DNA of 64,000 nucleotides from a virus. The notes below the pieces were generated by a model. That model did no database searches, had not been told where the DNA came from, and saw only the letters and a program-made list of their open reading frames with translations. The number at the start of each line of letters is the position of its first letter. The stretch's first letter is position 1. Both the position numbers and the translations under genes were made by a program. Shown piece by piece: positions 5,441-62,414 of the stretch. The stretch is from positions 5,476 through 69,475 of the IMG/VR virus record IMGVR_UViG_3300023242_000006, one strand, 5' to 3'.

Positions 5441-5671
5441 TTATTTTGTGTTGCATTTACAGTGTCCCGCATGTGTCATTGAAATTCCATCTCTAACTTT
5501 GGAATAGATATAAGTATGACCTTTGTAGTCAAACTCTTGTATGTCTTCAGCATGTGAAAAAGCACCATTGCTAATTCTTACAGTACCTTTTGTTGGCGTT
5601 TTTTGTTCTACATGAGTTGTTGTTTCACCACACCCAGTTAACCCTAATAGAATGAACAGAACCCAAACCAA
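5441..5671 (-). CDS. Putative lipoprotein
   Basis: Signal peptide with lipobox LGLTGC. Confidence 0.45.
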   Translation of the reverse strand: MVWVLFILLGLTGCGETTTHVEQKTPTKGTVRISNGAFSHAEDIQEFDYKGHTYIYSKVRDGISMTHAGHCKCNTK

Positions 5672-31159: not shown

Positions 31160-31318
31160 ATGAAAAAAGACAAATTATCACCAAAAGAGAGAAAACAAAC
31201 CATAAGTATCCAGATTCCTAATGAATTAATAATTCATTTAGATGTAATTAATAATAAGAGTAAATTCTTCGAATGGTTATTAATTGAACATTTTAACACT
31301 TTAAAAAATGGAAAATAA
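31160..31318 (+). CDS. Ribbon-helix-helix-like small protein; overlaps the start of the downstream endonuclease gene
   Basis: ..KQTISIQIPNELIIHLD.. Its stop overlaps the ATG at 31308. Confidence 0.4.
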   Translation: MKKDKLSPKERKQTISIQIPNELIIHLDVINNKSKFFEWLLIEHFNTLKNGK

Positions 31319-32258
31319 AACTGAAAATTTTATTTCAAAAGCTAAATTAATACATGGTGATAAATATGATTATTCAAAAGTTAACTATATTAATAAAAGA
31401 ACTAACGTTAAAATAATTTGTTCTGAACATGGTGTTTTTGAACAATTAGTACATAACCATTTAAAAGGTAATGGTTGTATTAAATGTTCTGGAAAAGGTT
31501 TAACTAATGAAGAATTTATTAATAAATGTAATATAGTTCATAAAAATAAATTTAATTATTCATTGGTAGATTATAAAAATTGTTATGAAAAAATTAAAAT
31601 AATTTGCCCAATACATGATAAATTTGAACAAACACCAAGTTCTCATATTAGTGGTGTTGGTTGTTGGAAGTGTTTTAATGAGGATAGAACCACATCAAAT
31701 AATGAGTTCATATTAAAAGCCGAAAAAGTTCATAGCGATAAATATAATTATTCTAAAATTATTTATTTAAATAGTAAAGTTAATATCACAATTATTTGTC
31801 CAATACATGGTGACTTTGAACAAACACCTAATATGCATTTAAAAGGTTGTGGTTGCCGTAAATGTGGTTATATAACGGTGTCTAAAAAAGCAATTAATAA
31901 TTCACATAGTTTTTCACTATCAAGTTGGAAAAATATTATATCTAAAAACATAAAGGCTAAACCAATGTTATATATTATTAAATGTTATAATGATACTGAA
32001 GAATTCATTAAAATAGGTATAACAATAAACAACTTAAAAGGAAGATACCCTAGTAATAAACATATGCCTTATAAATATGATATAATATTAACACATGAAG
32101 CTGAACCAGAATTAGTGTTTAACATAGAAAAAGCGTTACACAGGTATTTTAAAAAAATTAAATACACCCCGACTATAAAATTCCATGGTATGGGTGAGTG
32201 TTATTATATAAAAGATAAACCAGAAATTTTAAACTATTGTAATAAACAATTAAATTAA
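31308..32258 (+). CDS. Putative homing endonuclease: three zinc-ribbon repeats plus a C-terminal T5orf172 (GIY-YIG-like) domain
   Basis: The repeat [10 protein letters not shown]..IICxxHGxFEQxPxxHLKGxGCxKC occurs three times. C-terminus [18 protein letters not shown].......YDIIL.HEA....[11 protein letters not shown]. It sits on the plus strand, opposite to all its neighbours. Confidence 0.6.
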
Positions 32259-32397
32259 TTTTCTTTAACTTCTGAACCCTGTAATTGAATACCAGCAGTA
32301 TATTTTTCTAGAATGAAATATTCAAAATATGCTTTCTTGTTAGAACAAATTTTATTCATTTTTTATGTGTTTTTAAATATAAAAGGTATTTAAATAG

Positions 32398-32471
32398 TGT
32401 CCACAACAGGAGTCGAACCTGTGACCTATCCCACATTGGGGGAGTGCTCTAACCAACTGAGCTATGTGGAC
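32398..32471 (-). tRNA. tRNA (74 nt) with textbook acceptor, D and T arms, and an anticodon loop CCAATGT that lacks U33
   Basis: Minus strand GTCCACA-TA-GCTCAGTTGGTTAGAGC-A-CTCCC-CCAATGT-GGGAT-AGGTC-ACAGGTTCGACTCCTGT-TGTGGAC-A. The anticodon would formally be AAU, so the identity is unresolved. Confidence 0.7.
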
Positions 32472-35123: not shown

Positions 35124-35225
35124 TGGTACATCGTATAGGAATCGAACCTATGTTACCGCAAGCGATTGGTACTTAATCTTCCGATGTGCTCTCATTTCGG
35201 CATTCTACCATTAAACTAACGATAT
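35124..35225 (-). tRNA. tRNA-like element A (encodes CCA; good T-arm; about 98 nt if the distal 5' acceptor strand is used, or a 60-nt minimal form)
   Basis: 3' end ..ATAGGTTCGATTCCTAT-ACGATGT-ACCA. Complementary 5' strands are ACATCGG at 35181-35187 or ATATCGT at 35219-35225. Confidence 0.45.
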
Positions 35226-35336
35226 GTTTGGTTATATTATATGGTGGTCTATCACCACAATGTTTTCAATAGTACTGTTTTATGTGTGCCTCACGTGATT
35301 ACTCACATCAATGTCGCTTTAATAATATAACCTAGA

Positions 35337-35408
35337 AACTCATACTGGATTCGAACCAGCGTCTGCGGGCTCAACGCCCACCATAGTGTCCACTCTACCA
35401 ATGAATCA
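35337..35408 (-). tRNA. tRNA (72 nt) with anticodon loop CGTTGAG (formally UUG, Gln-like, but G at position 33)
   Basis: GATTCAT-TG-GTAGAGTGGACACTAT-G-GTGGG-CGTTGAG-CCCGC-AGAC-GCTGGTTCGAATCCAGT-ATGAGTT-T. Confidence 0.55.
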
Positions 35409-35505
35409 ACTATCACTATGTCGCTCGGCAAAGTTAAACGTGATAGAAAGGATTATAACCGTCTGAAAGTTTGCCGACCTTCATGTTGCTATTCCCCAAT
35501 TTTGT

Positions 35506-35603
35506 GCGAGAGGGTGGACTCGAACCACCGACACCCAGTCCCTAGTTGTTCCCTTGTACTTCGGGCTAAAGACCTTAGCGTTTACCACTTCGCCACTCTC
35601 GCA
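35506..35603 (-). tRNA. tRNA-like element C (98 nt): perfect 7-bp acceptor stem GCGAGAG/CTCTCGC, 3-bp D-stem, good T-arm, but no canonical anticodon stem
   Basis: GCGAGAG-TG-GCGAAGTGGTAAACGC-...48 nt...-GGTGGTTCGAGTCCACC-CTCTCGC-A. Confidence 0.45.
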
Positions 35604-45025: not shown

Positions 45026-45712
45026 TTAGTTTTTATATTTCCAAATGTATTTATAAGCGTGTTTTGTTTTATTTCTTAAATTTGCACTAATGTTTTTTCT
45101 AGACAACCCAAGTTCATTCTCAACATCTTGTGCACTTTTCCATTCTTTAATAAAATTGTTATTTAAATCGTATTGTAAAATAGGTTTTTTAATACTTTCA
45201 GCATTATTTTTAACCCATTCTTCAGATTTAATTATTTTTTTACCTCTAAGGTTATCAATAGCTTTCTGGTGAGCTAAAGTTTTACCAGTTTTTTTTCTAT
45301 TTTCAGAAATTAATTTTTTTGTTTCTTCTGAATGTGGGTTATAAACTCTATTTTTATTCGCTTCTCTTATTTTTTGTTTACGTTCCTCTGAATAAATAAC
45401 ACCAAAACCACCATCACCACCTAATGTTAAATTCATTCCGTTTTCATTATTACCATGAAAAGAATTATATTCATTTATATAATTGATTTCAATTTCATTT
45501 ATTTCATTTAACGAATGTTCACCTTCGTATATAACATCAAAACTATGACCGCTAAAACCATATTTTAATAATGAGTAATATATTAATGGTTGTTTTTTAC
45601 ATTTTAAACGTCTATAATAATCAAGTCTTAATTTTAAATTACTCGTTTTACCGATATAAATTCTACCAGATGGCGAAACTATTTTATAAATTTGACAAAT
45701 CTTTTTTTCCAT
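45026..45712 (-). CDS. GIY-YIG homing endonuclease (Seg/I-TevI-like) with NUMOD-type DNA-binding modules
   Basis: IYKIVSPSGRIYIGKTSNLKLRLDYY (GIY..YIG), repeated ..H.EETKKLISE.. and ..HQKAIDNLRG.., and a C-terminal HTH. Confidence 0.75.
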   Translation of the reverse strand: MEKKICQIYKIVSPSGRIYIGKTSNLKLRLDYYRRLKCKKQPLIYYSLLKYGFSGHSFDVIYEGEHSLNEINEIEINYINEYNSFHGNNENGMNLTLGGDGGFGVIYSEERKQKIREANKNRVYNPHSEETKKLISENRKKTGKTLAHQKAIDNLRGKKIIKSEEWVKNNAESIKKPILQYDLNNNFIKEWKSAQDVENELGLSRKNISANLRNKTKHAYKYIWKYKN

Positions 45713-49569: not shown

Positions 49570-50457
49570 TTAGCACAATTTGTCACTAATTTTTTCATTA
49601 TATCTAATAATAATTAAATTAATATTTTTGCTTTTACAATAATCTTTTTTAATTTTATCGTTAATTTGTTGTTGTTTAAATTTTATTATTCCACCAAAAT
49701 AATTAACTGGTTTGTAATGTTGAATACCGTTGAATTCAATACATATATTATAATCTGGTAAATAAAAATCAAATGGTAATAAATTAATATTTTTACAATC
49801 AGGAAATTTATATTGTCGTAAATATTTTATTTTTTTATTTTCTAATATATCTTTAATTTCAATTTCACCTTTTGATTCATTACATAAAGGACAACCATGT
49901 TTTCTGTTGATATGATGGTCTGGAGATTGTTCAAACTCACCATGCTCTGGACATATTATTTTAACCTTAATTTTATTATTTCTATAATTAACTTTTGAAT
50001 AATCATATTTATTATTATGTATTTTATCACCCTCTTCTATAAATGTTTCAATATTTTTATTATTATAAGTACAGTAAGTACAACCATGACCCTTTAAATG
50101 ATTACTTGGTGTTTGCTTGAATTCACCGTGGATTGAACAAATTATCTTTATTTCATTATGTGAACTGATATAATTAATATTTTTATAATCGAATTTATTA
50201 CCATGTATTTTAATCGCATCAAAAATAAATTTCTCGTTATTTTTAGTTAATTTATTTTTCATCTCTTCTCTTCCACATAATAAACAGCCTTTACCTTGTA
50301 TATGTGATTTTGGAGTCTGTTTAAATTCTCCATGTATCGGACAAATTATAACAACTTTTTGTGTTTGATTAATATAATCGACTAAACTATATTCATATTT
50401 ATTTGAATGTTTATTATTAGCTTTAATTTTAAAATTCTCTGTATTTGATGTACTCAT
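49570..50457 (-). CDS. Putative homing endonuclease: three zinc-ribbon repeats plus a C-terminal PD-(D/E)XK (Vsr/DUF559-like) nuclease domain
   Basis: Same KYDYS..IICPIHGEF.Q.P..H..G.GC..C repeats as 31308..32258. C-terminus FDFYLPDYNICIEFNGIQHY. Confidence 0.6.
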   Translation of the reverse strand: MSTSNTENFKIKANNKHSNKYEYSLVDYINQTQKVVIICPIHGEFKQTPKSHIQGKGCLLCGREEMKNKLTKNNEKFIFDAIKIHGNKFDYKNINYISSHNEIKIICSIHGEFKQTPSNHLKGHGCTYCTYNNKNIETFIEEGDKIHNNKYDYSKVNYRNNKIKVKIICPEHGEFEQSPDHHINRKHGCPLCNESKGEIEIKDILENKKIKYLRQYKFPDCKNINLLPFDFYLPDYNICIEFNGIQHYKPVNYFGGIIKFKQQQINDKIKKDYCKSKNINLIIIRYNEKISDKLC

Positions 50458-52417: not shown

Positions 52418-52648
52418 ATTAAAATTACCTTTTGATTTCTATTTACCAGATTTTAATATTTGTATTGAATTTAACGGGATTCAACATTATAAAGTAGTTG
52501 AACATTTTGGTGGGGTTCAAGGGTTTAATTCTAGGAAAATTAATGATAAAATAAAAAGGGAATATTGTTTACTAAACAATATTCCACTTATTATTATTAA
52601 ATATAATGACAATGTTGGTGATAAATTAACTTATTCAAAAGTAGTATA
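52418..52648 (+). pseudogene. C-terminal remnant of a PD-(D/E)XK homing endonuclease domain
   Basis: The plus frame reads LPFDFYLPDFNICIEFNGIQHYKVVEHFGGVQGF..IIIKYND. It matches the C-terminus of 49570..50457 and has no N-terminal part. Confidence 0.55.
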
Positions 52649-54244
52649 ACCCAACTTACCGTCTTTATCTAGCATAAAATTTATGTGTTGGGCTCGACCA
52701 TCTGTGTGGATAATAACATGTGATTGTAACCATGAGCTGGCACCTCTGTTATAACCCACCCTTAATTTTGTACTAGTACCAACAGCCAATGCTCCGTCCT
52801 TTCTACCAGGCGAGTGATAATGACCAACCACAATTTTAGTATTTAATTTTCTAAATTGTAATAACGAACCTCGACTACCATTTGAACCTATGTCACCATG
52901 TTGACCTAATTCCCAATCTTTAACCCGATAAGAAGCGCTTCGACCCAACGTAATAAACTTAGGAAACTTCTGGTTGATGATACTTGGAATTACTCCTTTG
53001 ACATTATAAGGGTCGTTAGAGTATTGCTCTAACAACATATCAGACATTTTCATGTAAAGTCTAGAATTTTTGTACGTTGGTTGTTTCTTCCAATCTTCAT
53101 TCTTAAGCCAACGGTCTAAGAAATCATCATGATTACTTCTGACAATAACCACGTTATCAAACTTTTCAAATGCTTTTAACGATTCTAACATAAAATCAAC
53201 CTCTTTACCTAAGTCATTAGTGCCAGATATTTCTTTACCATACTGAATGAAAGGGTCTTTAATCTCATGATGGGTAATTGAAGACCCATCAAATACGTCA
53301 TGTAATATAACGTGTTGTGGTTTTACTCTTTCAAATAAACTAAGTGTTGTATCTAAAACGTCTTGGTCATGATGTCCATAGTGAATATCACCTAATATAG
53401 CAGCAGCGAATTTAGTTACTTCACTTACCTCACCTTTTTCAACTCGATAATATAAATCAGTAAAATTACCTGTTTTATCATCAGCGGTTACTTGTCTAAC
53501 GAAAAATGTGTCATCATTTTTAATCTCAACAATAACGAATCCAAATGTATGGTGGAACTCGCCAGTTTTACCAGCTTTAGAATCAGTATAATTCTTTTTA
53601 GTTACAGCACCAGTAGTGGTCATCATTTTAGGTTTGTTACCTTCTAATACTGAAATCATTTCTAACTGAACCTTTGGGCTACCAAACACGCATGAATTAA
53701 TACCACTCAACGCTTGTAAACCAGTCATAGGGTTCACAGCCGTTGGTTGAATCTTAATATCTGACATAATCGATACGTACTTATGTATATCATGTCTGTT
53801 AGCATCTAGGTATGGTAATACCTCTGAAACCCAAAATTCTGATTCTTCTTGTTGATTTGTCCACATACTAGTAGGGTTTCTATACCTACCAGCTATGATA
53901 TGAATATCAGCAGCGATAAATTCAGCATAAGCTTCTAAGTTTTTCATCAAACCAGTATGAACAGGCGTATTGTTCTGAGCCCAACTTATAATAAAACGTT
54001 TTTTAGTCCCGTCATGGACTCTTGTTTTGGCTTTTACATACTGTTCTGGTTCAATTTCAACTTTTTCTTTGAAGTTTAATTTTTTAAACCATTTTCTAAC
54101 GGTTCTCTCTGATAACCCTAAGTCATTACCAATTTTAATTGCTAATTTCTCAACTGTTAAATTATTTTCTAACCTATTAACATATTCTAACCTAAATTTC
54201 TCAATTTCAATTTCAGTTAAATCTTTAAATTTAATTTTTACCAT
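52631..54244 (-). CDS. Calcineurin-like metallophosphoesterase with N-terminal HTH region
   Basis: GDIHYGHHD, HDVFDG, RSNHDD, GHYH motifs. N-terminus LSERTVRKWFKK. Confidence 0.65.
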   Translation of the reverse strand: MVKIKFKDLTEIEIEKFRLEYVNRLENNLTVEKLAIKIGNDLGLSERTVRKWFKKLNFKEKVEIEPEQYVKAKTRVHDGTKKRFIISWAQNNTPVHTGLMKNLEAYAEFIAADIHIIAGRYRNPTSMWTNQQEESEFWVSEVLPYLDANRHDIHKYVSIMSDIKIQPTAVNPMTGLQALSGINSCVFGSPKVQLEMISVLEGNKPKMMTTTGAVTKKNYTDSKAGKTGEFHHTFGFVIVEIKNDDTFFVRQVTADDKTGNFTDLYYRVEKGEVSEVTKFAAAILGDIHYGHHDQDVLDTTLSLFERVKPQHVILHDVFDGSSITHHEIKDPFIQYGKEISGTNDLGKEVDFMLESLKAFEKFDNVVIVRSNHDDFLDRWLKNEDWKKQPTYKNSRLYMKMSDMLLEQYSNDPYNVKGVIPSIINQKFPKFITLGRSASYRVKDWELGQHGDIGSNGSRGSLLQFRKLNTKIVVGHYHSPGRKDGALAVGTSTKLRVGYNRGASSWLQSHVIIHTDGRAQHINFMLDKDGKLGYTTFE

Positions 54245-54914: not shown

Positions 54915-55298
54915 TTATTTTTTTACATAAGAATCCAATAATACTTGGACCCGTTTATTATCTTTTTTAGCTTTAGCTTGTTCTTTCTCAACCCTACTAT
55001 CTATATACTCACAAATAGCTATCGCCCTTAAATTGTTATAAAATTTACCATTATGTTCGTTTCCTTTAACCACAAAAGCAACTGTTACTACTTCATTAAG
55101 GCTAAATCTTTCTAATGTTTCAACGTTTTCATTAATAAATTCTAACTTAACAATCTCTGGGTATTGTTCTTCTGTTTTTACAACAAATTCTCTCTTTTTA
55201 AAGTTACCAAATTCCTGTATCTCTCCAATTTGTTTAATTGTACCATCTAAAAAATAATGCATATATTTAATTTTGTTCGTTAATAATTCTTTCCACAA
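54915..55298 (-). CDS. Hypothetical protein
   Basis: ORF of 127 aa. Confidence 0.45.
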   Translation of the reverse strand: MWKELLTNKIKYMHYFLDGTIKQIGEIQEFGNFKKREFVVKTEEQYPEIVKLEFINENVETLERFSLNEVVTVAFVVKGNEHNGKFYNNLRAIAICEYIDSRVEKEQAKAKKDNKRVQVLLDSYVKK

Positions 55299-55995
55299 TT
55301 TCTGTCACCCCTTCAACAGCACTTTTCTCTACGTACTCAATGTTTAAATCAAGTGTGTCTAAATCATGACTAGGGTTAGGGTCAACGTATATTACGTTAA
55401 AACCTTTCGGTAGGTTATCAAAAAAACTTAAGGTATAACCAATTTGTAAACTAGTTCCAACAATTATTACAATATCAGCTGTTAAAAAAGCATCATAAGC
55501 TTTATTTACATCAAAAGGATATTCACCAAACCATACAATGTGTGGTCTTAATTGTGCACCATACTTCTCGCATTTATCACCAATATTAATATCAGAATAA
55601 CCAATGTCAATAGAATCTAACTTAACTTTTAAAAGATTACCAGTTAAATAAGAACTCCTAGCTTTAGTTAACTCACCATGCAAGTGAATGATGTTAGTAG
55701 ACCCACCTCTTTCGTGCAAATCATCAACATTTTGTGTAACGATAGTTACATCAAAGTCTTCTTCTAACCTAGCCAATGCTTTATGTGCATTGTTAGGTTC
55801 AACACTTGGCATTTGTCTTCTGCGGTCATTGTAAAAGTTAAGTACTTTCTCACGGTCTTTTCTCCAACCATCAAGAGTACAAACTTCTTCAATCTTATGG
55901 TTTTCCCAAAGGCCATCTACCAAATCTCTGAATGTATCAACACCAGATTCTTTGCTTATTCCAGCACCTGTAAATATAACTACTTTCTTTTTCAT
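55267..55995 (-). CDS. Sir2-family NAD+-dependent deacylase or ADP-ribosyltransferase (no Zn-ribbon Cys4)
   Basis: GAGISKESGVDTFRD, TQNVDDLHERGG, catalytic LHGEL. Confidence 0.75.
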   Translation of the reverse strand: MKKKVVIFTGAGISKESGVDTFRDLVDGLWENHKIEEVCTLDGWRKDREKVLNFYNDRRRQMPSVEPNNAHKALARLEEDFDVTIVTQNVDDLHERGGSTNIIHLHGELTKARSSYLTGNLLKVKLDSIDIGYSDINIGDKCEKYGAQLRPHIVWFGEYPFDVNKAYDAFLTADIVIIVGTSLQIGYTLSFFDNLPKGFNVIYVDPNPSHDLDTLDLNIEYVEKSAVEGVTEIVERIINEQN

Positions 55996-56474: not shown

Positions 56475-56828
56475 TTAAATTCTAGCATCGTGTTTCATTT
56501 CTAATTTTTTATTAATTCTTCGGTCAACTTCACCTTCAATGATTCTATTAGTACAATTTGAAATTATTTTCTCAGTAATACCGTTTATCTTATCATCAAT
56601 GTGTCTTGACATACCATTTTCGATTTGTTTTAGCTTAAAATCTAAACGGTCTTTTAATTTTATTTTATCTTGTTCAGTGATACCATCAACGAAAAAATCT
56701 ATTTCTGTCTTTAGGTAATCAACCATAATAGCTTTCAAATCATCTGCTGACATCAAAACAGTTTCACCATTAACCGTTTTTATTTTTATACAATCTTTTC
56801 GACTATCGTTGAAAGATAAATTAACCAT
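56475..56828 (-). CDS. Hypothetical protein
   Basis: ORF of 117 aa. Confidence 0.4.
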   Translation of the reverse strand: MVNLSFNDSRKDCIKIKTVNGETVLMSADDLKAIMVDYLKTEIDFFVDGITEQDKIKLKDRLDFKLKQIENGMSRHIDDKINGITEKIISNCTNRIIEGEVDRRINKKLEMKHDARI

Positions 56829-57252
56829 AATGTTTAGTTAATAAATTATAAACCTCTGACCAATCAGTGGTTGGGTCAAAACCAGCTTTATCTTCAAACA
56901 AAACATTCATATAAGGTTTTTTATCGTAATTCCCATAACCATCTGGTTGAGTAGGTACCTCTGGATTATCGTTGACATACTTGAATAGAATATCATTAGC
57001 TTTGAATAAAGCTAAATACTCATTGACTTCATGTGGGTGAGAACATGTATATAAAAACATAACAACATCTGGCAACTTGCTAATTAATTGCAAAGTTTCT
57101 TTCGCCATAGGGTAAAACTCATCTGTAGTGTTACGAACGTAGTTAGGTTTAAGTATGGTACCATGGATATCAAACGCCCAAAAAGTTCTATCCCAGTTTC
57201 TAGAAATCATATACCCGAAATGATTTACATTTATTGATTTTATTATACTCAC
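56821..57252 (-). CDS. HAD-like phosphatase family protein (divergent)
   Basis: WAFDIHGTIL motif I-like. Confidence 0.4.
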   Translation of the reverse strand: MSIIKSINVNHFGYMISRNWDRTFWAFDIHGTILKPNYVRNTTDEFYPMAKETLQLISKLPDVVMFLYTCSHPHEVNEYLALFKANDILFKYVNDNPEVPTQPDGYGNYDKKPYMNVLFEDKAGFDPTTDWSEVYNLLTKHYG

Positions 57253-57253
57253 A

Positions 57254-57817
57254 TTATTTATTTAAAAAACTAATTACTTTCTCTTTAATACCTATTTGTT
57301 TGATACCCTCATTAATTCTAGGTGTGATAACAAAATTTTTAACACCCCATGTTCCTCTCCAACTTATATCTAAGTCATCAACAGCAACCCAATTTGTTAT
57401 TTGTTCGTTATCTTTAACATATTGGTTAATCTCTAAAGAACGTTCTTGCTCATAACGAAAAGACATATCCCACTGAAAACCGTCTGGTTTATAAGTACCG
57501 ATAAAACTTTTTGTCGTGGCTATTGGTTTCTTAATTATCCCTTGTTCTATGTAGTATTCACTTAATTCTTCTAATGTCCCATGTTTCTTCCAATCGGAAG
57601 AAACAACTATCTCAGCACCAGTTTCTTCTAATATTTGATTTAAAACCTTAACAGCTTTTGCGTCAAAATCATCAAACCTAACCGAAGCTGGTGCATGACA
57701 AAGAAATTTAGATGATTCTGGATTAGTAGAACAATATTTTACCCACTTCTTATTACGACACCCCCAATTATTGGATAGACATATTACACCATCATTATCT
57801 AAGAATATTACTTTCAT
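57254..57817 (-). CDS. HAD-like phosphatase
   Basis: IFLDNDGVI, VSSDWK, AVDDLD, which correspond to motifs I-III. Confidence 0.5.
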   Translation of the reverse strand: MKVIFLDNDGVICLSNNWGCRNKKWVKYCSTNPESSKFLCHAPASVRFDDFDAKAVKVLNQILEETGAEIVVSSDWKKHGTLEELSEYYIEQGIIKKPIATTKSFIGTYKPDGFQWDMSFRYEQERSLEINQYVKDNEQITNWVAVDDLDISWRGTWGVKNFVITPRINEGIKQIGIKEKVISFLNK

Positions 57818-57960: not shown

Positions 57961-58416
57961 TTACTCTGTAGGTTTATACCTTACAATAGTAACACATTCT
58001 CCTCTAAAAATTTCATCTATCATAGGTAAAATTATTTTTTCATCACCCCCAGCAAGCCCACAACCAATAAGTGGCATACCAAAAAGTAAACCAGTAAATT
58101 TATTTTTCATTTCTCTTAACGCAGAACGTAAAGCATCATAATCTAAATCCATTTGACCATTTCGTCTTCCAGTATAGTCATATTGACCATACAAATTAAC
58201 AATTATAGGTTTTGTGTTTTCGGTATAGGTAATTGTACCTAATTTATCTCTATCACCTTTTATTGTTTCACAATCAGCTTCATAAGCTTCTGGAAATTTA
58301 CTTTTAATTTGTGGGGCTATACCAGCACCCATAGTACAAAAACAGTTACAGCAATGAGCTATAACATCAAATAATTCGGCATCTCTTACTAAGTCACCAT
58401 CAATGTATTTTATCAT
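57961..58416 (-). CDS. Macro domain protein (ADP-ribose / O-acetyl-ADP-ribose binding or hydrolase)
   Basis: DVIAHCCNCFCTMGAGIAPQI and IGCGLAGGD. Confidence 0.7.
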   Translation of the reverse strand: MIKYIDGDLVRDAELFDVIAHCCNCFCTMGAGIAPQIKSKFPEAYEADCETIKGDRDKLGTITYTENTKPIIVNLYGQYDYTGRRNGQMDLDYDALRSALREMKNKFTGLLFGMPLIGCGLAGGDEKIILPMIDEIFRGECVTIVRYKPTE

Positions 58417-58421
58417 AATTT

Positions 58422-58955
58422 TTATTGTTTTAAAGTTTCTCTTACTCGCATAATAGCTTCACCTAACCAGTTTTTACCTTGCCATTTGCTCTTATCTTCA
58501 ATATTTCGGTGTTCAACACCCATTCCAATCCCCCAGATTTTATCGTAAGGGCTTGCTTCAACAATTTCTCTATCTTCAGTTGCTAACAATGATGTTTTGA
58601 AACTTATATTCTGTGTAAACTTGGCCAAGTTACCTTGATAAACAAATTCTCTACATACTCCATTCCATCTATTTGTATCGAAATTTTTAACACTACGACC
58701 CAAAGCTTTTTGTTCTTTTGGGTTTGTAGTATTCATAATAGTTTCATATACTTCCATATCTTTGAAATATAAAGCTTTTTGGGCCATCATGTATTGTTCA
58801 CAACTAGTGTAAGTGATTCCAGCAATGACAAACTTTGATGGATGCCATTGACTATAAATCCCATTCCAAAAGAATACAAACTCGTCTGTTATTGTAACGT
58901 CTTTTGTTCCCATAATTAAACTTTTGCTCGTTCTCTCACTTCTTCGAATGTCCAT
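58422..58955 (-). CDS. NADAR (YbiA/DUF1768) domain protein
   Basis: FFW...SQW.PS.F.I.G..YTSCEQYMMAQKALYF.D......I.....P.EQKALGR.V.NFD...W......V...GN.AKF.QN......LL.T....IVEASPYDKIWGIG. Confidence 0.7.
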   Translation of the reverse strand: MDIRRSERTSKSLIMGTKDVTITDEFVFFWNGIYSQWHPSKFVIAGITYTSCEQYMMAQKALYFKDMEVYETIMNTTNPKEQKALGRSVKNFDTNRWNGVCREFVYQGNLAKFTQNISFKTSLLATEDREIVEASPYDKIWGIGMGVEHRNIEDKSKWQGKNWLGEAIMRVRETLKQ

Positions 58956-59937
58956 TCTTTAGTGATTATACCGTTTCTGAACACTTCTACCAACTCATCT
59001 GTAACATCGTTGAACTCAGAATCCATTGAAGTAACTGTTCTAAACGTACCATCGTCATTCTTAACCAATTTAAGTAACCCTTGTTTTGATTTCTTGAATG
59101 ATTTTGTGATGTTACCATTAGCATCCATCTCAGTTGGAGATTTGATGATATTCTTTTCTTCACCATTGACAATAGCATAACATGCTTTGGTTGCAAAGTT
59201 TTGCGTATCACGGTTGATATCGGCTTGTAATAATTTGCCACCCATACCTAAAGCTAAGTTTTCTGGTGATATTTTTTGTTCCTCTAACAATGCATAGATT
59301 TCTTTGATTGAATCTAGATTAACACCATCACCTTGAATCACACGAACTTGTGGTGGTAACACTTTATAACCCTTATCGTTTACTGTGTAACCGAATTTGT
59401 CGAATAATATAGTGAAAATTTCTTTCAATGTCATTAACACGTCACCAGAATCTGGACGGATAACTAGTTGATTTCCTGGTTCTGATGGGCGAGATAGTAC
59501 TAAGTCTCTCAATTCAGTTCCCCAATACTCAGAACATGCACGAAAGATATTGTATGAATCAGATACACACGCAACTAACCCAGTAGGGAATGTTGTAAGT
59601 ACTCGTTTCATCATTTCCAATTCACCTTCTTCACCTTTAAGTGTCATGATAGAGTGTTCAGTTGCTGGGATAGATAACCCATAAACCGTTTCTGTATTGT
59701 AGTAATCTCTGATGTATTTAGATGCCATGATTGTGTCAGACCCTCTAAAGTTTACCAAGTGAGCAGAGCCACCGATACCAGCTGATTGTACAGACGATAC
59801 ACCACGGAAACCGAAGTCATTCAACACGTAATCAACCAGAAACTCTCTTAACCCAGTATCATATGATGTGTTTTTTTGAAAACTACTATCTACTATTTTA
59901 CGAACTTCTCTCGAAAGTGTAGCAACCGTAATCGGGT
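58916..59937 (-). CDS. nadV: Nicotinamide phosphoribosyltransferase NadV/NAMPT, exon 2
   Basis: ...YPITVATLSREVRKI...VLNDFGFRGVSSVQSAGIGGSAHLVNFRGSDT... The frame is open upstream of the track ATG and reads back to a splice-like boundary. Confidence 0.7.
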
Positions 59938-60856
59938 CGTGATGTTCGTATAGGTTCGTTAATCCCTATACCGTTCTCTTATGAACTGCTACATTTTTCA
60001 ATGTAGACCAGACTATATCAACATCTTATAAATAAGATGGTATCCATTTCCACTCACTTGAGTGTACGTCTTTCGACTAGTCGTTGAACTTTTTTAATCT
60101 TTATTTTGATAAGTATAAATTCTAGTTATGTGAGAAATAAACTCTTCTGTCGTCATGGTACTTTTTGAATTATTACAAAACTTACAACAACTAACACAAT
60201 TATCAACAGAATAACCAATAGAGTTATTTACTCTATCAACACCATTAACTCTAAATGGAGAAGTATCCATTTTTTTTCGTTTAGTGCCTTTCCATCCCAT
60301 ATGTGGTTCTAAACCACAATAATGACAATTACCATCTAGTAATTTATAACATTCCTCAGTAGTTAACTTAAAAAAGTAATTTCTTCTTGTTGCTGCTTTT
60401 AAATAATTTCTAAAAATTTCATGTTTAAGACCTTCAAAATTTGGTTTTGATTGCCTTTCAACTATTTTTTCTTTCATTAAACAACCACATGATGCGTGTC
60501 TACCGTTTTTTAAAAGATTACTTCTAGCTATTGTGGTATTACCACAATCACATTTACAAAGGTAACCTTTTTCTCTACTGTGATGCTCAATAACTGTTAA
60601 CCTATTGAACTTTTTACCTATCATTTTCTCTTTTGCTTTCATATGTTACAACATTAATTATAATAATAAATATATAACTATTTCACAAAAGACATTAAAA
60701 ATTAAACTTAGCTGCTGATTTTCCAATCTCTTACCTTTTCAAACATTCACGATTGATGTTACCATCTGCGTTGTAGTGTTAAGAGCTCTAAGGACGTTCC
60801 AGCAATTAGAATACTTTCGATATGGTGTCACCACCATAAAGGGCTATATTAATCTA
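59938..60856 (-). mobile_element. Group I-like intron (about 919 nt) interrupting nadV, carrying an HNH endonuclease ORF
   Basis: On the RNA strand exon 1 ends ..GUAUGGU and the intron ends ..CAUCACG (terminal G) before ACCCGAUU. Splicing restores VWY-PITV, which is conserved in NAMPT. Confidence 0.65.
60094..60642 (-). CDS. Intron-encoded HNH endonuclease
   Basis: C..C pairs and C-terminal GVDRVNNSIGYSVDNCVSCCKFCNNSK. Confidence 0.7.
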   Translation of the reverse strand: MKAKEKMIGKKFNRLTVIEHHSREKGYLCKCDCGNTTIARSNLLKNGRHASCGCLMKEKIVERQSKPNFEGLKHEIFRNYLKAATRRNYFFKLTTEECYKLLDGNCHYCGLEPHMGWKGTKRKKMDTSPFRVNGVDRVNNSIGYSVDNCVSCCKFCNNSKSTMTTEEFISHITRIYTYQNKD

Positions 60857-61394
60857 ACCATACTTGCAACAAGATAGTTTCTAAAAAGTTAGTTAACCAT
60901 GCACAGTTCTCATCTAAAGATTCGATAACGAACAAAACATTTTTGGTTCCAACTACATTTCCTTCTGGAACTGCTTTGATGCTGATAGGTAATTTACCAT
61001 CATACATCTCGATAATATAATCGAATTTTGTTCTATCGAATACATCGTCACGACCAAACACACCGTGCTTTGTACCTAAATATTCAAATGCTTCATCAAC
61101 CTCTTCTTTCGTAATGGCAACACCTTCTAAGTATTGTTTTAAAAAGATTTGTAACCCGTAGAATACTGTCTCAGAGAATTTACCACCTCTTGATTCCAAG
61201 TAAGATACCATCTTAGTCATTTCACTACCATAGAATCTGTGATGTGAATATTTGTAAGCATCTGAACACAAAATCAAGTTGTTTGGTTTTGTTAACGCTT
61301 TACTGAGATATTTTTGAATACCTTCAATAGATACCCAATCTTTGTTTTCTATCGCAGTTTTTAATTTTTCAGCTATTTTTTTTTGTAAACTCAT
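60857..61394 (-). CDS. nadV: Nicotinamide phosphoribosyltransferase NadV/NAMPT, exon 1
   Basis: ..LCSDAYKYSHHRFYG... is the NAMPT N-terminus. The track ORF ends LQVWLD* just inside the intron. Confidence 0.7.
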
Positions 61395-61415: not shown

Positions 61416-62414
61416 TTATTCACCAGTGTAAGTTACATTATCAATTCTTTCAACTAATCTTTCACCAATATTTGGTATAAGTTTTTCATCGTAAACTTTG
61501 TTAACCAAAGCCAACATCATTTCACGGTGTTCTGGCATTACTTTGGTTCTAACCGTATCAAAGTTACTGAACTCTCTAATTGGAATCCATTTAACATCTG
61601 CGATATCATCACTAGCTTTTGCGTAACCCATATTTTTGCGACCCAAGAATAACGTAGTCATTATCCCAGATTCTTCTTTGGCATATCTCCAATCTTTTAC
61701 TCTATGACTTAAGATATATTTTAAGTCGCTGATAACACAATTACCACCAGTTTCTTCACGAAACTCTCTCAAAGCTGCTTTTTCATAGCTTTCATCTGTC
61801 GGGTCAACAAATCCACCAACGAATCTCCAATACTTCTCGTTAGGTTTTCTACCCATAAGAATCTCACCTTCATCGTTGTATGCACAGATATCAACTGTTG
61901 GATAAGAGACTGGTCTTTGATTAAATGCTGAGTAGATAACACCAGACCTAAAATCAGTAGAGTCAAGAGTTTCTTTAGCGACATCTGCTCTAATGTTTGT
62001 AGCGTTATGGTTAAAGCTAGCTTCTAATTCAATAACTTGAAATTTGCCTTTGTAATGAGGAATGAACGAATCACGGCTACCATAAATAACTGTTTTCTTT
62101 TCACCAAACGGCATAGAAATAGCTGAATCAATTTCTGAACTCCATTTTTCATCGTATCTTTGGTCCATTACTGGTAAAATCATTAAACTAGGAAACGATT
62201 TTTGAATCATAGCTTTACGACTAGCAAAATCCAAAGGGTTTTTCTTGGTGTTTTGTACTCTAGACACACCTAGGATAAGTACAGTTTTTTTATGATTTGA
62301 AAGGACGTGGTTAATCAAGTCAATATGTCCTTTATGTAATCGGTTTGTTTGAAATCGCCCTATAACAACCCCAACTTCAAAATCCGTTGGTTCTATGTTT
62401 TTTTTAATGTCCAT
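61416..62414 (-). CDS. Bifunctional NMN adenylyltransferase / Nudix hydrolase (NatV/NadM-Nudix-like)
   Basis: N-terminus GRFQ..HKGH (nucleotidyltransferase H-x-G-H). C-terminal Nudix box GGFVDPTDESYEKAALREFREETGG. Start trimmed to MDIKK, downstream of the promoter motif at 62438. Confidence 0.75.
   Translation of the reverse strand: MDIKKNIEPTDFEVGVVIGRFQTNRLHKGHIDLINHVLSNHKKTVLILGVSRVQNTKKNPLDFASRKAMIQKSFPSLMILPVMDQRYDEKWSSEIDSAISMPFGEKKTVIYGSRDSFIPHYKGKFQVIELEASFNHNATNIRADVAKETLDSTDFRSGVIYSAFNQRPVSYPTVDICAYNDEGEILMGRKPNEKYWRFVGGFVDPTDESYEKAALREFREETGGNCVISDLKYILSHRVKDWRYAKEESGIMTTLFLGRKNMGYAKASDDIADVKWIPIREFSNFDTVRTKVMPEHREMMLALVNKVYDEKLIPNIGERLVERIDNVTYTGE

Follow-up and report, generated by a model that had tools for sequence, protein, structure and literature searches.

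INTRODUCTION

The phage NAD+ reconstitution pathway NARP2 has been described as a two-gene pathway of Nampt and Nmnat, for example NadV and NatV of Vibrio phage KVP40 (Osterman et al. 2024). Phage NADAR genes were found to neighbor NadM and NadV genes, and Macro and NADAR domains co-occur, although not exclusively, in large phages (Iyer, Burroughs and Aravind 2022, PMC9503650). The name NADAR and its NAD+ context are credited to de Souza and Aravind (2012) as cited in PMC11543638. Here we analyze a pair of adjacent genes, for a Macro and a NADAR protein, that adjoin nadV in an uncultured phage (IMG/VR record IMGVR_UViG_3300023242_000006). The window, by which we mean the whole stretch of 64,000 nucleotides (nt) analyzed, covers positions 5,476 to 69,475 of this record.

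The survey of Iyer et al. preceded the experiments on three phage proteins named Adpp, AdfN, and AdfM, and it does not separate NARP1-linked from NARP2-linked cases. In the NARP1-AP of Vibrio phage Gary, a Poa1p-like Macro protein (Adpp) is encoded between Adps and Namat and dephosphorylates ADP-ribose-1''-phosphate (ADPR-1''P). This compound is the product of the RES-domain defense aRES, and Adpp enables NARP1 to act against aRES (Osterman et al. 2026 preprint, bioRxiv 10.64898/2026.01.28.702374). Phage NADARs of the AdfN group neutralize DarT1, and AdfN(Bas60) rescued three phages from DarTG1 but not from DarTG2 (Johannesman et al. 2025, PMC11825919). Each NADAR subtype that has been assayed, YbiA included, cleaves guanine-linked ADP-ribose in DNA or RNA, and thymine-linked ADP-ribose is cleaved by none of them (PMC11125620; PMC11833690). 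Phage Macro proteins that act against DarT2 (AdfM) exist as well (PMC13309987).

The explanation we favor, with confidence slightly better than even, is that the Macro and NADAR proteins of the window process ADP-ribose as accessory members of a phage NAD+ counter-defense block built around NARP2 (Nampt/NadV plus NadM-Nudix). We describe the family assignments of the two proteins, the conservation of their ligand-binding and catalytic residues, the tight packing of the co-oriented genes, and their recurrent linkage to NAD+ genes.

RESULTS AND DISCUSSION

The Macro and NADAR genes are packed behind nadV

The region from 54.9 to 62.5 kb is a run of minus-strand genes, all co-oriented, that are read in the order NadM-Nudix, NadV, NADAR, Macro, HAD, and, farther on, Sir2 (Table 1). 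An initial annotation, made from the letters of the DNA alone, had proposed a Macro–NADAR gene pair immediately upstream of nadV. Two adjacent open reading frames (ORFs) are indeed present on the minus strand, with Macro and NADAR profile matches far above chance. The pair does adjoin nadV, but it lies 3′ of this gene and is "upstream" only if positions are counted along the plus strand.

The NadM-Nudix gene ends 21 nt before nadV, the nadV stop codon is followed after 2 nt by the ATG of NADAR, and the NADAR stop codon is followed after 5 nt by the ATG of Macro. A 40-nt overlap of NADAR with nadV, as first annotated, follows from the longest ORF, whose first ATG is at 58955. Three external gene callers instead start NADAR at the ATG at 58913, 2 nt past the nadV stop, which gives a protein of 163 amino acids (aa). 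The 120 best NADAR homologs are 156–179 aa long, and the near-full-length ones in a sampled alignment share this start Met. The overlap is probably an artifact of choosing the first ATG. Sir2 had been placed next to the pair but is 1,966 nt from Macro, with five ORFs between them. The initial annotation had also overlooked that nadV is split; a 919-nt intron that contains an HNH ORF lies between its two exons. An identical string of genes, with the intron, is found in three independent assemblies (ENA, Logan, and JGI), and therefore it is real and not an assembly artifact. No Shine-Dalgarno-like motifs precede the start codons of NADAR or Macro, and the GC content is ∼30%.

As in NARP2, the NadV and NadM-Nudix genes are adjacent and co-oriented, and the spliced NadV is an intact protein of 519 aa. 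The NadM-Nudix protein matches NCBIfam families for bifunctional NMNAT/Nudix and NMNAT/ADP-ribose pyrophosphatase enzymes weakly (25–67 bits, below the cut-offs). Its longest ORF extends to 62468 from a TTG, and a protein of 332 aa is called in ENA, JGI, and Logan. Whereas the described NARP2 pathway has two genes, the window adds NADAR, Macro, HAD, and Sir2, together with a group I intron in nadV.

The NADAR protein is of the Glu type

The longest NADAR ORF (58422..58955, 177 aa) matches Pfam PF08719 with 176.6 bits (E = 6e-52) and PHROG 1017 with 175 bits. In the Protein Data Bank (PDB), its sequence matches 8BAU, an ADP-ribose-bound NADAR from Phytophthora (E = 4.9e-14), and Escherichia coli YbiA (E = 1.3e-7). 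The AlphaFold model has a mean confidence (pLDDT) of 95.9, and Foldseek aligns it with template-modeling (TM) scores of 0.90 to 8BAU and 0.77 to YbiA, with no further match across the PDB.

ADP-ribose is contacted in 8BAU by E43, K50, K75, R79, W89, R93, E125, D130, and W133 (Schuller et al. 2023, PMC11543638). Residues E39, K46, K69, R73, W83, E119, D124, and W127 of the window NADAR (163-aa numbering) map to 8BAU E43, K50, K75, R79, W89, E125, D130, and W133, respectively. All of these except R73 are invariant in 29–31 homologs, down to 52% identity, and R73 and R88 are nearly invariant. The residue at the E125 position separates the subfamilies, with Glu in the YbiA family, Asp in DarT1-linked NADARs, and His in T4-like phage NADARs (Schuller et al. 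2023). In the window protein, the motif ivEaSPyD aligns with lyEaSrhD of 8BAU and thus carries the Glu of the YbiA subfamily. Because the ADP-ribose-contacting residues are conserved and Glu is found at the E125 position, the window NADAR is, judged by its residues, a catalytically intact Glu-type (YbiA-family) protein. The residues on which the initial annotation depended are therefore present for NADAR in the alignment with 8BAU.

The window NADAR shares with YbiA and 8BAU the core YbiA fold and the diagnostic Glu, but it is phage-encoded and stands in an NAD+ salvage context, not in a riboflavin or SOS-operon context. It differs from DarG1 in having Glu119 in place of Asp and in being 163 aa long, compared with 229–234 aa for DarT1-linked NADARs (PMC11543638). 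The DarG1 type also features a DNA-binding extension at the N terminus and a neighboring DarT1 gene. No ADP-ribosyltransferase (ART) was found next to NADAR in a Pfam scan of its neighbors. In this respect the protein resembles the AdfN proteins (T4 gp30.3, AdfN-Bas32, and AdfN-Bas60), which are orphan phage NADARs without a DarT partner, and in which the ADP-ribose-contacting Glu and Lys are likewise conserved. It is 39% identical to bas60_0111 (110 bits, E = 4e-36), presumably the tested anti-DarT1 protein AdfN(Bas60); the 120 kb of Bas60 that were searched contain no other NADAR. The Bas60 NADAR also has Glu at the diagnostic position; it is not next to NAD+ genes, whereas the window NADAR lies inside a NARP2 block. 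In contrast, the T4 gp30.3 group has His at this position, and BLASTP gave no alignment of the window NADAR with T4 gp30.3, leaving only a weak match to Pfam Phage_30_3 (19.4 bits, below the cut-off). The proposal that NADAR reverses ADP-ribosylation of DNA is thus supported by homology, given its relatives that cleave guanine-linked ADP-ribose (G-ADPr), the AdfN precedent, and the retained ligand residues.

The NADAR protein also passes the NCBIfam model TIGR02464, "riboflavin biosynthesis intermediates N-glycosidase" (162 bits, cut-off 73.7), and phage NADAR homologs are often annotated as "GTP cyclohydrolase II" or "ribA/ribD-fused". These labels would fit a housekeeping YbiA-type N-glycosidase that destroys reactive intermediates of the riboflavin pathway. 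We give this idea almost no credence, as there are no riboflavin genes near NADAR, which is linked to NAD+ genes instead. Moreover, YbiA itself cleaves G-ADPr (PMC11125620), and the Bas60 protein, which carries a similar annotation, is presumably the factor tested against DarT1.

The window NADAR matches the PADLOC candidate-defense protein PDC-M42C with 160 bits and the NCBIfam "NADAR family anti-phage protein" DS32_2 with 48 bits, below the cut-off of the latter. Close kin of this NADAR are therefore also filed on the bacterial side of the conflict. A literature search returned no title or abstract that ties NADARs to Thoeris signals, and neither the NARP3 paper nor PMC9503650 holds experimental evidence for such a tie.

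The Macro protein resembles the Adpp group

The Macro protein matches Pfam PF01661 with 32.1 bits (E = 1.2e-7, cut-off 22 bits) and PHROG 335, "phosphatase", with 182 bits. Its AlphaFold2 model has a pLDDT of 88.9 and yields 191 macro-domain matches in the PDB at E ≤ 0.001 with Foldseek. A family profile searched against the PDB ranks BT1257 first (76 bits), followed by TARG1 (60), SCO6735 (59), DarG (44), and Poa1p (44). Foldseek returns TARG1, BT1257, Poa1p, and DarG at TM scores of 0.70–0.79 (0.76–0.78 for DarG). Because the profile ranking and Foldseek give the same set, we assign the protein to the ALC1/TARG1/Poa1p-like class.

Another relative is gp175 (158 aa) of the Thalassavirus phage Direpillow8, which is 40% identical to the window Macro over the full length (115 bits, E = 1e-38). 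The two proteins have in common the motifs AH.CNCFC.MG.GIAP, YGQY, and PLIGCGLAGGD. In Direpillow8, gp174 (Prs-like), gp175 (Macro), and gp176 (nicotinate phosphoribosyltransferase-like) reproduce the three-gene arrangement of Vibrio phage Gary. By sequence, the closest characterized relatives of the window Macro are thus the phage Adpp group of small-molecule ADPR-1''-phosphate phosphatases. Like Adpp, the window protein is a single-domain Macro of ∼150 aa in the Poa1p/TARG1-like class and is encoded beside NAD+ reconstitution genes. The homology to gp175 is full-length, Direpillow8 belongs to the same genus as Gary, and the PHROG family (335) is the same. Unlike Adpp, however, it is not encoded between Adps and Namat, and its neighbors are the NARP2 genes Nampt and NadM-Nudix.

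The active site of the Macro protein departs from that of several thymidine-ADP-ribose removers. The catalytic dyad of TARG1 is absent, with Asp125 replaced by Ala122 (GCGLAGG compared with GCGLDRL). One strand ends in the motif YGQ, with an invariant Gln78, and this stretch (nlYGQ) aligns with nmIGQ of BT1257. A MAFFT alignment left the register of the TARG1 Lys84 equivalent ambiguous between Gln78 and Arg84, and BT1257 and a published structural alignment were used instead. The catalytic Lys (DarG K80, AdfM K78, TARG1 K84) is absent from the window Macro under both readings of the alignment. In SCO6735, a Gln (Gln85) occupies the position of the TARG1/DarG Lys in a structure-based alignment that includes BT1257; this residue is essential, and the enzyme cleaves thymidine-ADP-ribose efficiently (PMC9411070). 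Through the sequence alignment with BT1257, Gln78 of the window Macro may correspond to this position. The catalytic-residue check therefore comes out mixed for Macro: The Lys is missing, but its loss does not exclude activity on DNA, because SCO6735 with a Gln is active on thymidine-ADP-ribose.

These features bear on the possibility that the two proteins form a dual DNA-repair pair, with NADAR removing guanine-linked (DarT1-type) and Macro removing thymine-linked (DarT2-type) ADP-ribose, so that both DarT chemistries would be covered. NADARs cleave G-ADPr but not thymine-linked ADP-ribose (T-ADPr), which ALC1-like Macros do cleave, and the activities are thus complementary (PMC11125620; PMC9411070). 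Further points in its favor are the invariant Gln78 of the YGQ motif, which recalls the essential Gln85 of SCO6735, the structural match to DarG, and the AdfM precedent of anti-DarT2 phage Macros (PMC13309987). We nevertheless consider a dual repair function rather unlikely. The window Macro is far nearer to the Adpp group than to AdfM, since BLASTP with PhiKZ gp104 (AdfM) gives 27.7 bits. With the PADLOC DarG model it scores 40 bits, similar to the Adpp ortholog (46) and far under PhiKZ AdfM (133), and with the NCBIfam DarG model it reaches 33.8 bits against a cut-off of 250. Although it shares the fold class with DarG2, AdfM, TARG1, and SCO6735, and perhaps a Gln at the catalytic-Lys position with SCO6735, it is a 151-aa single domain that has neither Lys80/84 nor Asp125 and no DarT-binding domain, and a Pfam scan of its neighbors found no DarT. 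It also follows NAD+ reconstitution genes rather than NADAR in other phages, as described below. The suggestion of the initial annotation that the pair reverses DarT marks is accordingly weaker for Macro, which is distant from DarG2/AdfM and has no catalytic Lys, than for NADAR, but it is not refuted. The isoelectric point was considered as a proxy for DNA binding and was uninformative, as PhiKZ AdfM acts on DNA yet matches the window Macro in acidity.

Macro and NADAR recur beside NAD+ reconstitution genes

The gene neighborhoods of NADAR homologs were examined in IMG/VR, using the best 80 of 396 matches, which collapse to 63 loci at 90% identity. Neighbors were sought within 6 kb, and phosphoribosyltransferases among them were classed against the window Nampt and the Thalassavirus Namat and Adps. 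A homologous Macro gene is present in 29 of the 63 loci, always on the same strand and within 300 nt in 17 of the 29. The order is NADAR then Macro in 15 loci and Macro then NADAR in 14. Macro is found in 11 of 13 loci with NARP2-like neighbors, in 13 of 18 with NARP1-like neighbors, and in three of the 29 in which no such gene is present; three loci with a weak or partial phosphoribosyltransferase match (two with Macro) were left out of the test. Hence, Macro is present in 24/31 NADAR loci with NARP1 or NARP2 compared with 3/29 without (Fisher p = 1.2e-7). This difference indicates that Macro follows the NAD+ reconstitution genes and not NADAR as such. NADAR occurs both with and without NAD+ reconstitution genes nearby.

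A search seeded with NadV gave 27 close relatives, all of which have NadM upstream of NadV (27/27). Twelve of these loci contain both NADAR and Macro, seven contain Macro only, seven contain neither, and one is truncated. None has NADAR without Macro, and NADAR, when present, sits between NadV and Macro, so that the order NadM, NadV, NADAR, Macro is conserved among relatives. This pattern of presence and absence is as expected of accessory counter-defense genes.

The known function of AdfN leaves the clustering of this NADAR lineage with NARP1 and NARP2 genes unexplained. One way to account for it is that NADAR, like Macro (Adpp), has been recruited by both pathways as a metabolite-level accessory that frees ADP-ribose or base from a noncanonical N-glycosidic, NAD+-derived product of a still-unmatched defense. 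Such a product could be a pool of ADP-ribosylated nucleobases or a signal in which ADP-ribose is joined to an amino acid or base. In agreement with this idea, a phosphoribosyltransferase of NARP1 or NARP2 type lies no more than 6 kb from NADAR in 31 of the 63 loci, which span varied lineages and gene orders, and NADAR in the NadV lineage is inserted exactly between NadV and Macro. Iyer et al. (2022) argue that phage NADARs mainly target soluble ADP-ribose derivatives, and Adpp provides a precedent for the recruitment of ADP-ribose-liberating enzymes by NARP operons (Osterman et al. 2026). However, no small-molecule ADP-ribose substrate has been reported for NADARs, whose substrates other than nucleic acids are limited to riboflavin-pathway intermediates (PMC9503650; PMC11543638). 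In addition, 29 of the 63 loci have NADAR without NARP genes nearby, and the tested AdfN(Bas60) counters DarT1 without them (PMC11825919). We therefore regard a metabolite substrate as doubtful. If it were true, Macro and NADAR together would form a general front end that returns everything to plain ADP-ribose, and the presence of an Adpp-type Macro beside NARP2 would be explained even though it is not needed against aRES.

The census also bears on the role of Sir2. TARG1/OARD1, the best structural match of Macro, is an O-acetyl-ADP-ribose deacetylase, JGI labels Macro homologs as such, and Sir2 belongs to the same conserved block in NARP2-type relatives. Macro might thus deacylate O-acyl-ADP-ribose made by the phage's own CobB-like Sir2, with the pair tidying up sirtuin products. 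This seems improbable to us, as Sir2 is five ORFs away, one relative (L110) has Sir2 without Macro, and, outside the NARP2-type lineage, Sir2 is found at only a few other loci, with none in NARP1-type Macro–NADAR loci within 6 kb. Processing of Sir2 products, as had been suggested initially, is therefore possible but not needed, because the pair recurs in NARP1-type loci that have no such homolog in this range. The conserved partner of Macro–NADAR is the set of NAD+ reconstitution genes and not Sir2.

Many NARP2-type relatives (L020–L029, L060, L061, L107–L132) have a Prs/Adps-like gene 3–5 kb beyond Sir2. Its product is 23–33% identical to the Thalassavirus Adps and could supply phosphoribosyl pyrophosphate (PRPP) for Nampt. 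A search of all 64 kb of the window detected no Adps/Prs-like gene.

In the GenBank phage collection, Macro homologs occur in 2,772 records and NADAR homologs in 735. In Bas60, the two genes are ∼22 kb apart, and Macro is located beside genes for a ComF-like phosphoribosyltransferase, a HAD protein, and TerC; with these neighbors in place of Adps and Namat, it was rejected as a NARP1 case. Vibrio phage pVp-1, a Vipunavirus, was rejected as the source of NARP1-AP because its first 50 kb contain no such operon.

A proposed NAD+ counter-defense block

Under the explanation we favor, Macro would be an Adpp-like hydrolase. It would dephosphorylate the compound formed by RES-type NAD+ phosphorolysis, ADP-ribose-1''-phosphate, to give free ADP-ribose, and it may act on O-acyl-ADP-ribose too. 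By analogy with AdfN(Bas60), NADAR would be an N-glycosidase that cuts ADP-ribose off guanine (N2) in phage DNA or RNA marked by DarT1-like transferases. Both reactions would yield free ADP-ribose. This compound could in turn be cleaved by the Nudix domain of NadM to AMP and ribose-5-phosphate, the latter a precursor of the PRPP that is used by Nampt; such cleavage is conceivable because enzymes of this kind are named NMNAT/ADP-ribose pyrophosphatases. NadV and NadM would rebuild NAD+ from nicotinamide, and the block as a whole would repair NAD+-derived damage and refill the NAD+ pool.

Several considerations weigh against this model. All of the proposed substrates are extrapolated from homologs that are ∼40% identical, and bas60_0111 is presumed to be AdfN(Bas60), and Direpillow8 gp175 to be the ortholog of Gary Adpp. 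YbiA and T4 NADARs cleave G-ADPr in vitro but give no protection from DarT1 in cells (PMC11125620), so that in vitro chemistry is no predictor of the physiological target. ALC1-like Macros are promiscuous, with SCO6735 and TARG1 acting on DNA, protein, and RNA ends (PMC11833690; PMC9411070). Because NARP2 alone cancels aRES (Osterman et al. 2026), an Adpp-type phosphatase beside it is without a demonstrated benefit. The NADAR-seeded loci are phylogenetically non-independent and represent the best 80 of 396 matches. Finally, a scan of 54.8–64 kb for promoters and terminators gave counts equal to the shuffled expectation and is therefore silent on operon structure; co-transcription is neither supported nor opposed.

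A different origin of the substrates can also be envisaged. The window encodes a stand-alone ADP-ribosyltransferase, ART-PolyVal, so the phage itself may write marks that its two enzymes can erase. The T4 NADAR gene 30.3 lies ∼3 kb from alt, and Iyer et al. (2022) note co-expression with ARTs. Alternatively, the pair might serve RNA repair, with Macro and the HAD_SAK_2 phosphatase clearing Appr-1''p after a Tpt1/KptA-type step, as HAD_SAK_2 is named after RNA-repair proteins and Poa1p acts in tRNA splicing (Osterman et al. 2026). Editing of the phage's own marks or RNA repair is very improbable, however. The ART-PolyVal gene is ∼40 kb distant, and the conserved neighbors of the pair are NAD+ salvage genes. 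Among the 30 window ORFs run against Pfam there is no KptA/Tpt1 or RNA ligase; seven ORFs were run against PHROGs only, and ∼25 of at least 110 aa were not scanned.

A group I intron interrupts nadV

The core of the intron matches Rfam Intron_gpI with 30.6 bits (E = 1.5e-5). Because an ORF splits the core, this score is below the gathering score, and the intron was found in E-value mode but not at the Rfam gathering threshold. The HNH ORF is free-standing within the intron and belongs to PHROG endonuclease VII/HNH families. By blastn, the intron resembles the nrdE region of phage Twort, which contains introns and HNH endonucleases, and also Bacillus phage AR9. The last base of exon 1 is U, the last base of the intron is G, and the frame is restored if the intron is removed exactly. 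With U60857 joined to A59937, the product is the 519-aa Nampt, which aligns without gaps to the uninterrupted NadV of four relatives (L004, L005, L008, and L009). The predicted junction of the ligated exons is CAAGTATGGT (end of exon 1) followed by ACCCGATTACGG (start of exon 2).

Relatives have no intron at this nadV site. Two of them (L003/L019/L128 and L006/L040/L130) have an HNH element inserted elsewhere in nadV, behind residue 145. In contig 3300037294_000399, the closest relative, another ∼1.4 kb is also inserted, and the final ∼97 codons of nadV are repeated after it. In this lineage, mobile elements therefore seem to have targeted nadV repeatedly.

Neighboring genes and other features of the window

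The coordinates of the features discussed here are collected in Table 1. The HAD gene behind Macro is a variable member of the block that follows Macro in many relatives. Two consecutive HAD-like phosphatase genes lie 3′ of Macro in the window; Bas60 also has a HAD gene near its Macro. Sir2, at the distal end of the conserved block, scores ∼190 bits with NCBIfam Sir2-family deacylase models, below the equivalog cut-offs.

Table 1. Features of the window on which this analysis draws
Feature	Coordinates	Strand	Matches and remarks
NadM-type bifunctional nicotinamide mononucleotide (NMN) adenylyltransferase + Nudix (Nmnat of NARP2)	61416..62414	-	Pfam NUDIX 59.6 bits, CTP_transf_like 24.8 bits
nadV (Nampt) exon 1	60857..61394	-	codons 1-179 and first base of Tyr180; Pfam NAMPT_N 97.4 bits
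Group I intron within nadV	59938..60856	-	919 nt; HNH ORF 60094..60642
nadV (Nampt) exon 2	58916..59937	-	Pfam NAPRTase 144 bits; PHROG 448 nicotinamide phosphoribosyltransferase 323 bits
NADAR, 163 aa, YbiA/Glu-type	58422..58913	-	Pfam NADAR; alternative longest ORF from 58955
Macro, 151 aa, ALC1/TARG1/Poa1p-like, putatively Gln-type	57961..58416	-	Pfam Macro; PHROG 335
HAD-family phosphatase-like	57254..57817	-	Pfam HAD_SAK_2 71.7 bits; 143-nt gap after Macro
Weakly HAD-like ORF, next after HAD_SAK_2	56821..57252	-	NCBIfam BT0820 family 21.7 bits, below cut-off
Four small ORFs, the weakly HAD-like one included	between HAD and Sir2	-	ORF list
CobB-like Sir2 (sirtuin), distal end of conserved block	55267..55995	-	Pfam SIR2 133.2 bits
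DUF3127 protein	54915..55298	-	Pfam
537-aa protein	52631..54244	-	PHROG 1745 "DNA transfer protein" 504 bits; metallophosphoesterase signature
Homing-endonuclease-like ORF	49570..50457	-	two of the three such ORFs match HNH/endonuclease PHROG families, one GIY-YIG+NUMOD1
Homing-endonuclease-like ORF	45026..45712	-	as above
Homing-endonuclease-like ORF	31308..32258	+	as above
tRNA-like genes, ∼98 nt	35127..35225 and 35504..35602	-	above Rfam tRNA threshold
tRNA-Ile(AAT) and tRNA-Gln(TTG) of the same cluster	32397..32471 and 35335..35407		ordinary
Stand-alone ADP-ribosyltransferase, ART-PolyVal, 189 aa	17360..17929	-	Pfam PF18760 74.8 bits

Direpillow8 has an annotated "A1 protein" of similar size to the 537-aa protein of the window, and the two may be of the same family. 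If this is true, an early region devoted to host takeover could contain the NAD+ block. Of the two ∼98-nt tRNA-like genes, one is skipped by ARAGORN and the other is given a four-base anticodon (gccc). The genome looks rich in mobile endonucleases, one of which is among the few plus-strand genes.

A DNA-level search of the GenBank phage collection found no close relative of this phage, with only short patches and the mobile intron matching, and related IMG/VR contigs reach 362 kb. Among solved structures and curated families, Bacteroides proteins (BT1257 and the BT0820 family) match best, which hints at a Bacteroidota host but is only a guess.

Implications for phage NAD+ counter-defense

Each component of the block has an experimental precedent, in NARP2 (2024), AdfN (2025), AdfM (2026), and Adpp (2026 preprint). 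The families and their neighborhoods were described between 2012 and 2026, and most of the Macro–NADAR/NAD+ picture is already covered by the literature of 2022–2026. The window adds a case from an uncultured phage in which the pieces are contiguous, and it is a further example of a known toolkit and does not represent a novel type of system. Two points that the experimental papers cited here do not address emerge from the census. NADARs of one lineage are linked to NARP1 as well as NARP2 loci, and an Adpp-type Macro is common beside NARP2, where published data give Adpp no role.

If the favored explanation is true, the block would be a compact natural set of functions against NAD+-based immunity, in which NAD+ is rebuilt by NARP2, the products of RES-type defenses are undone by Macro, and guanine ADP-ribosylation is erased by NADAR. 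The linkage of Macro and NADAR to NARP genes could reveal a metabolic benefit, such as recycling of ADP-ribose that spares PRPP or removal of harmful metabolites, or it could reveal further defense chemistry.

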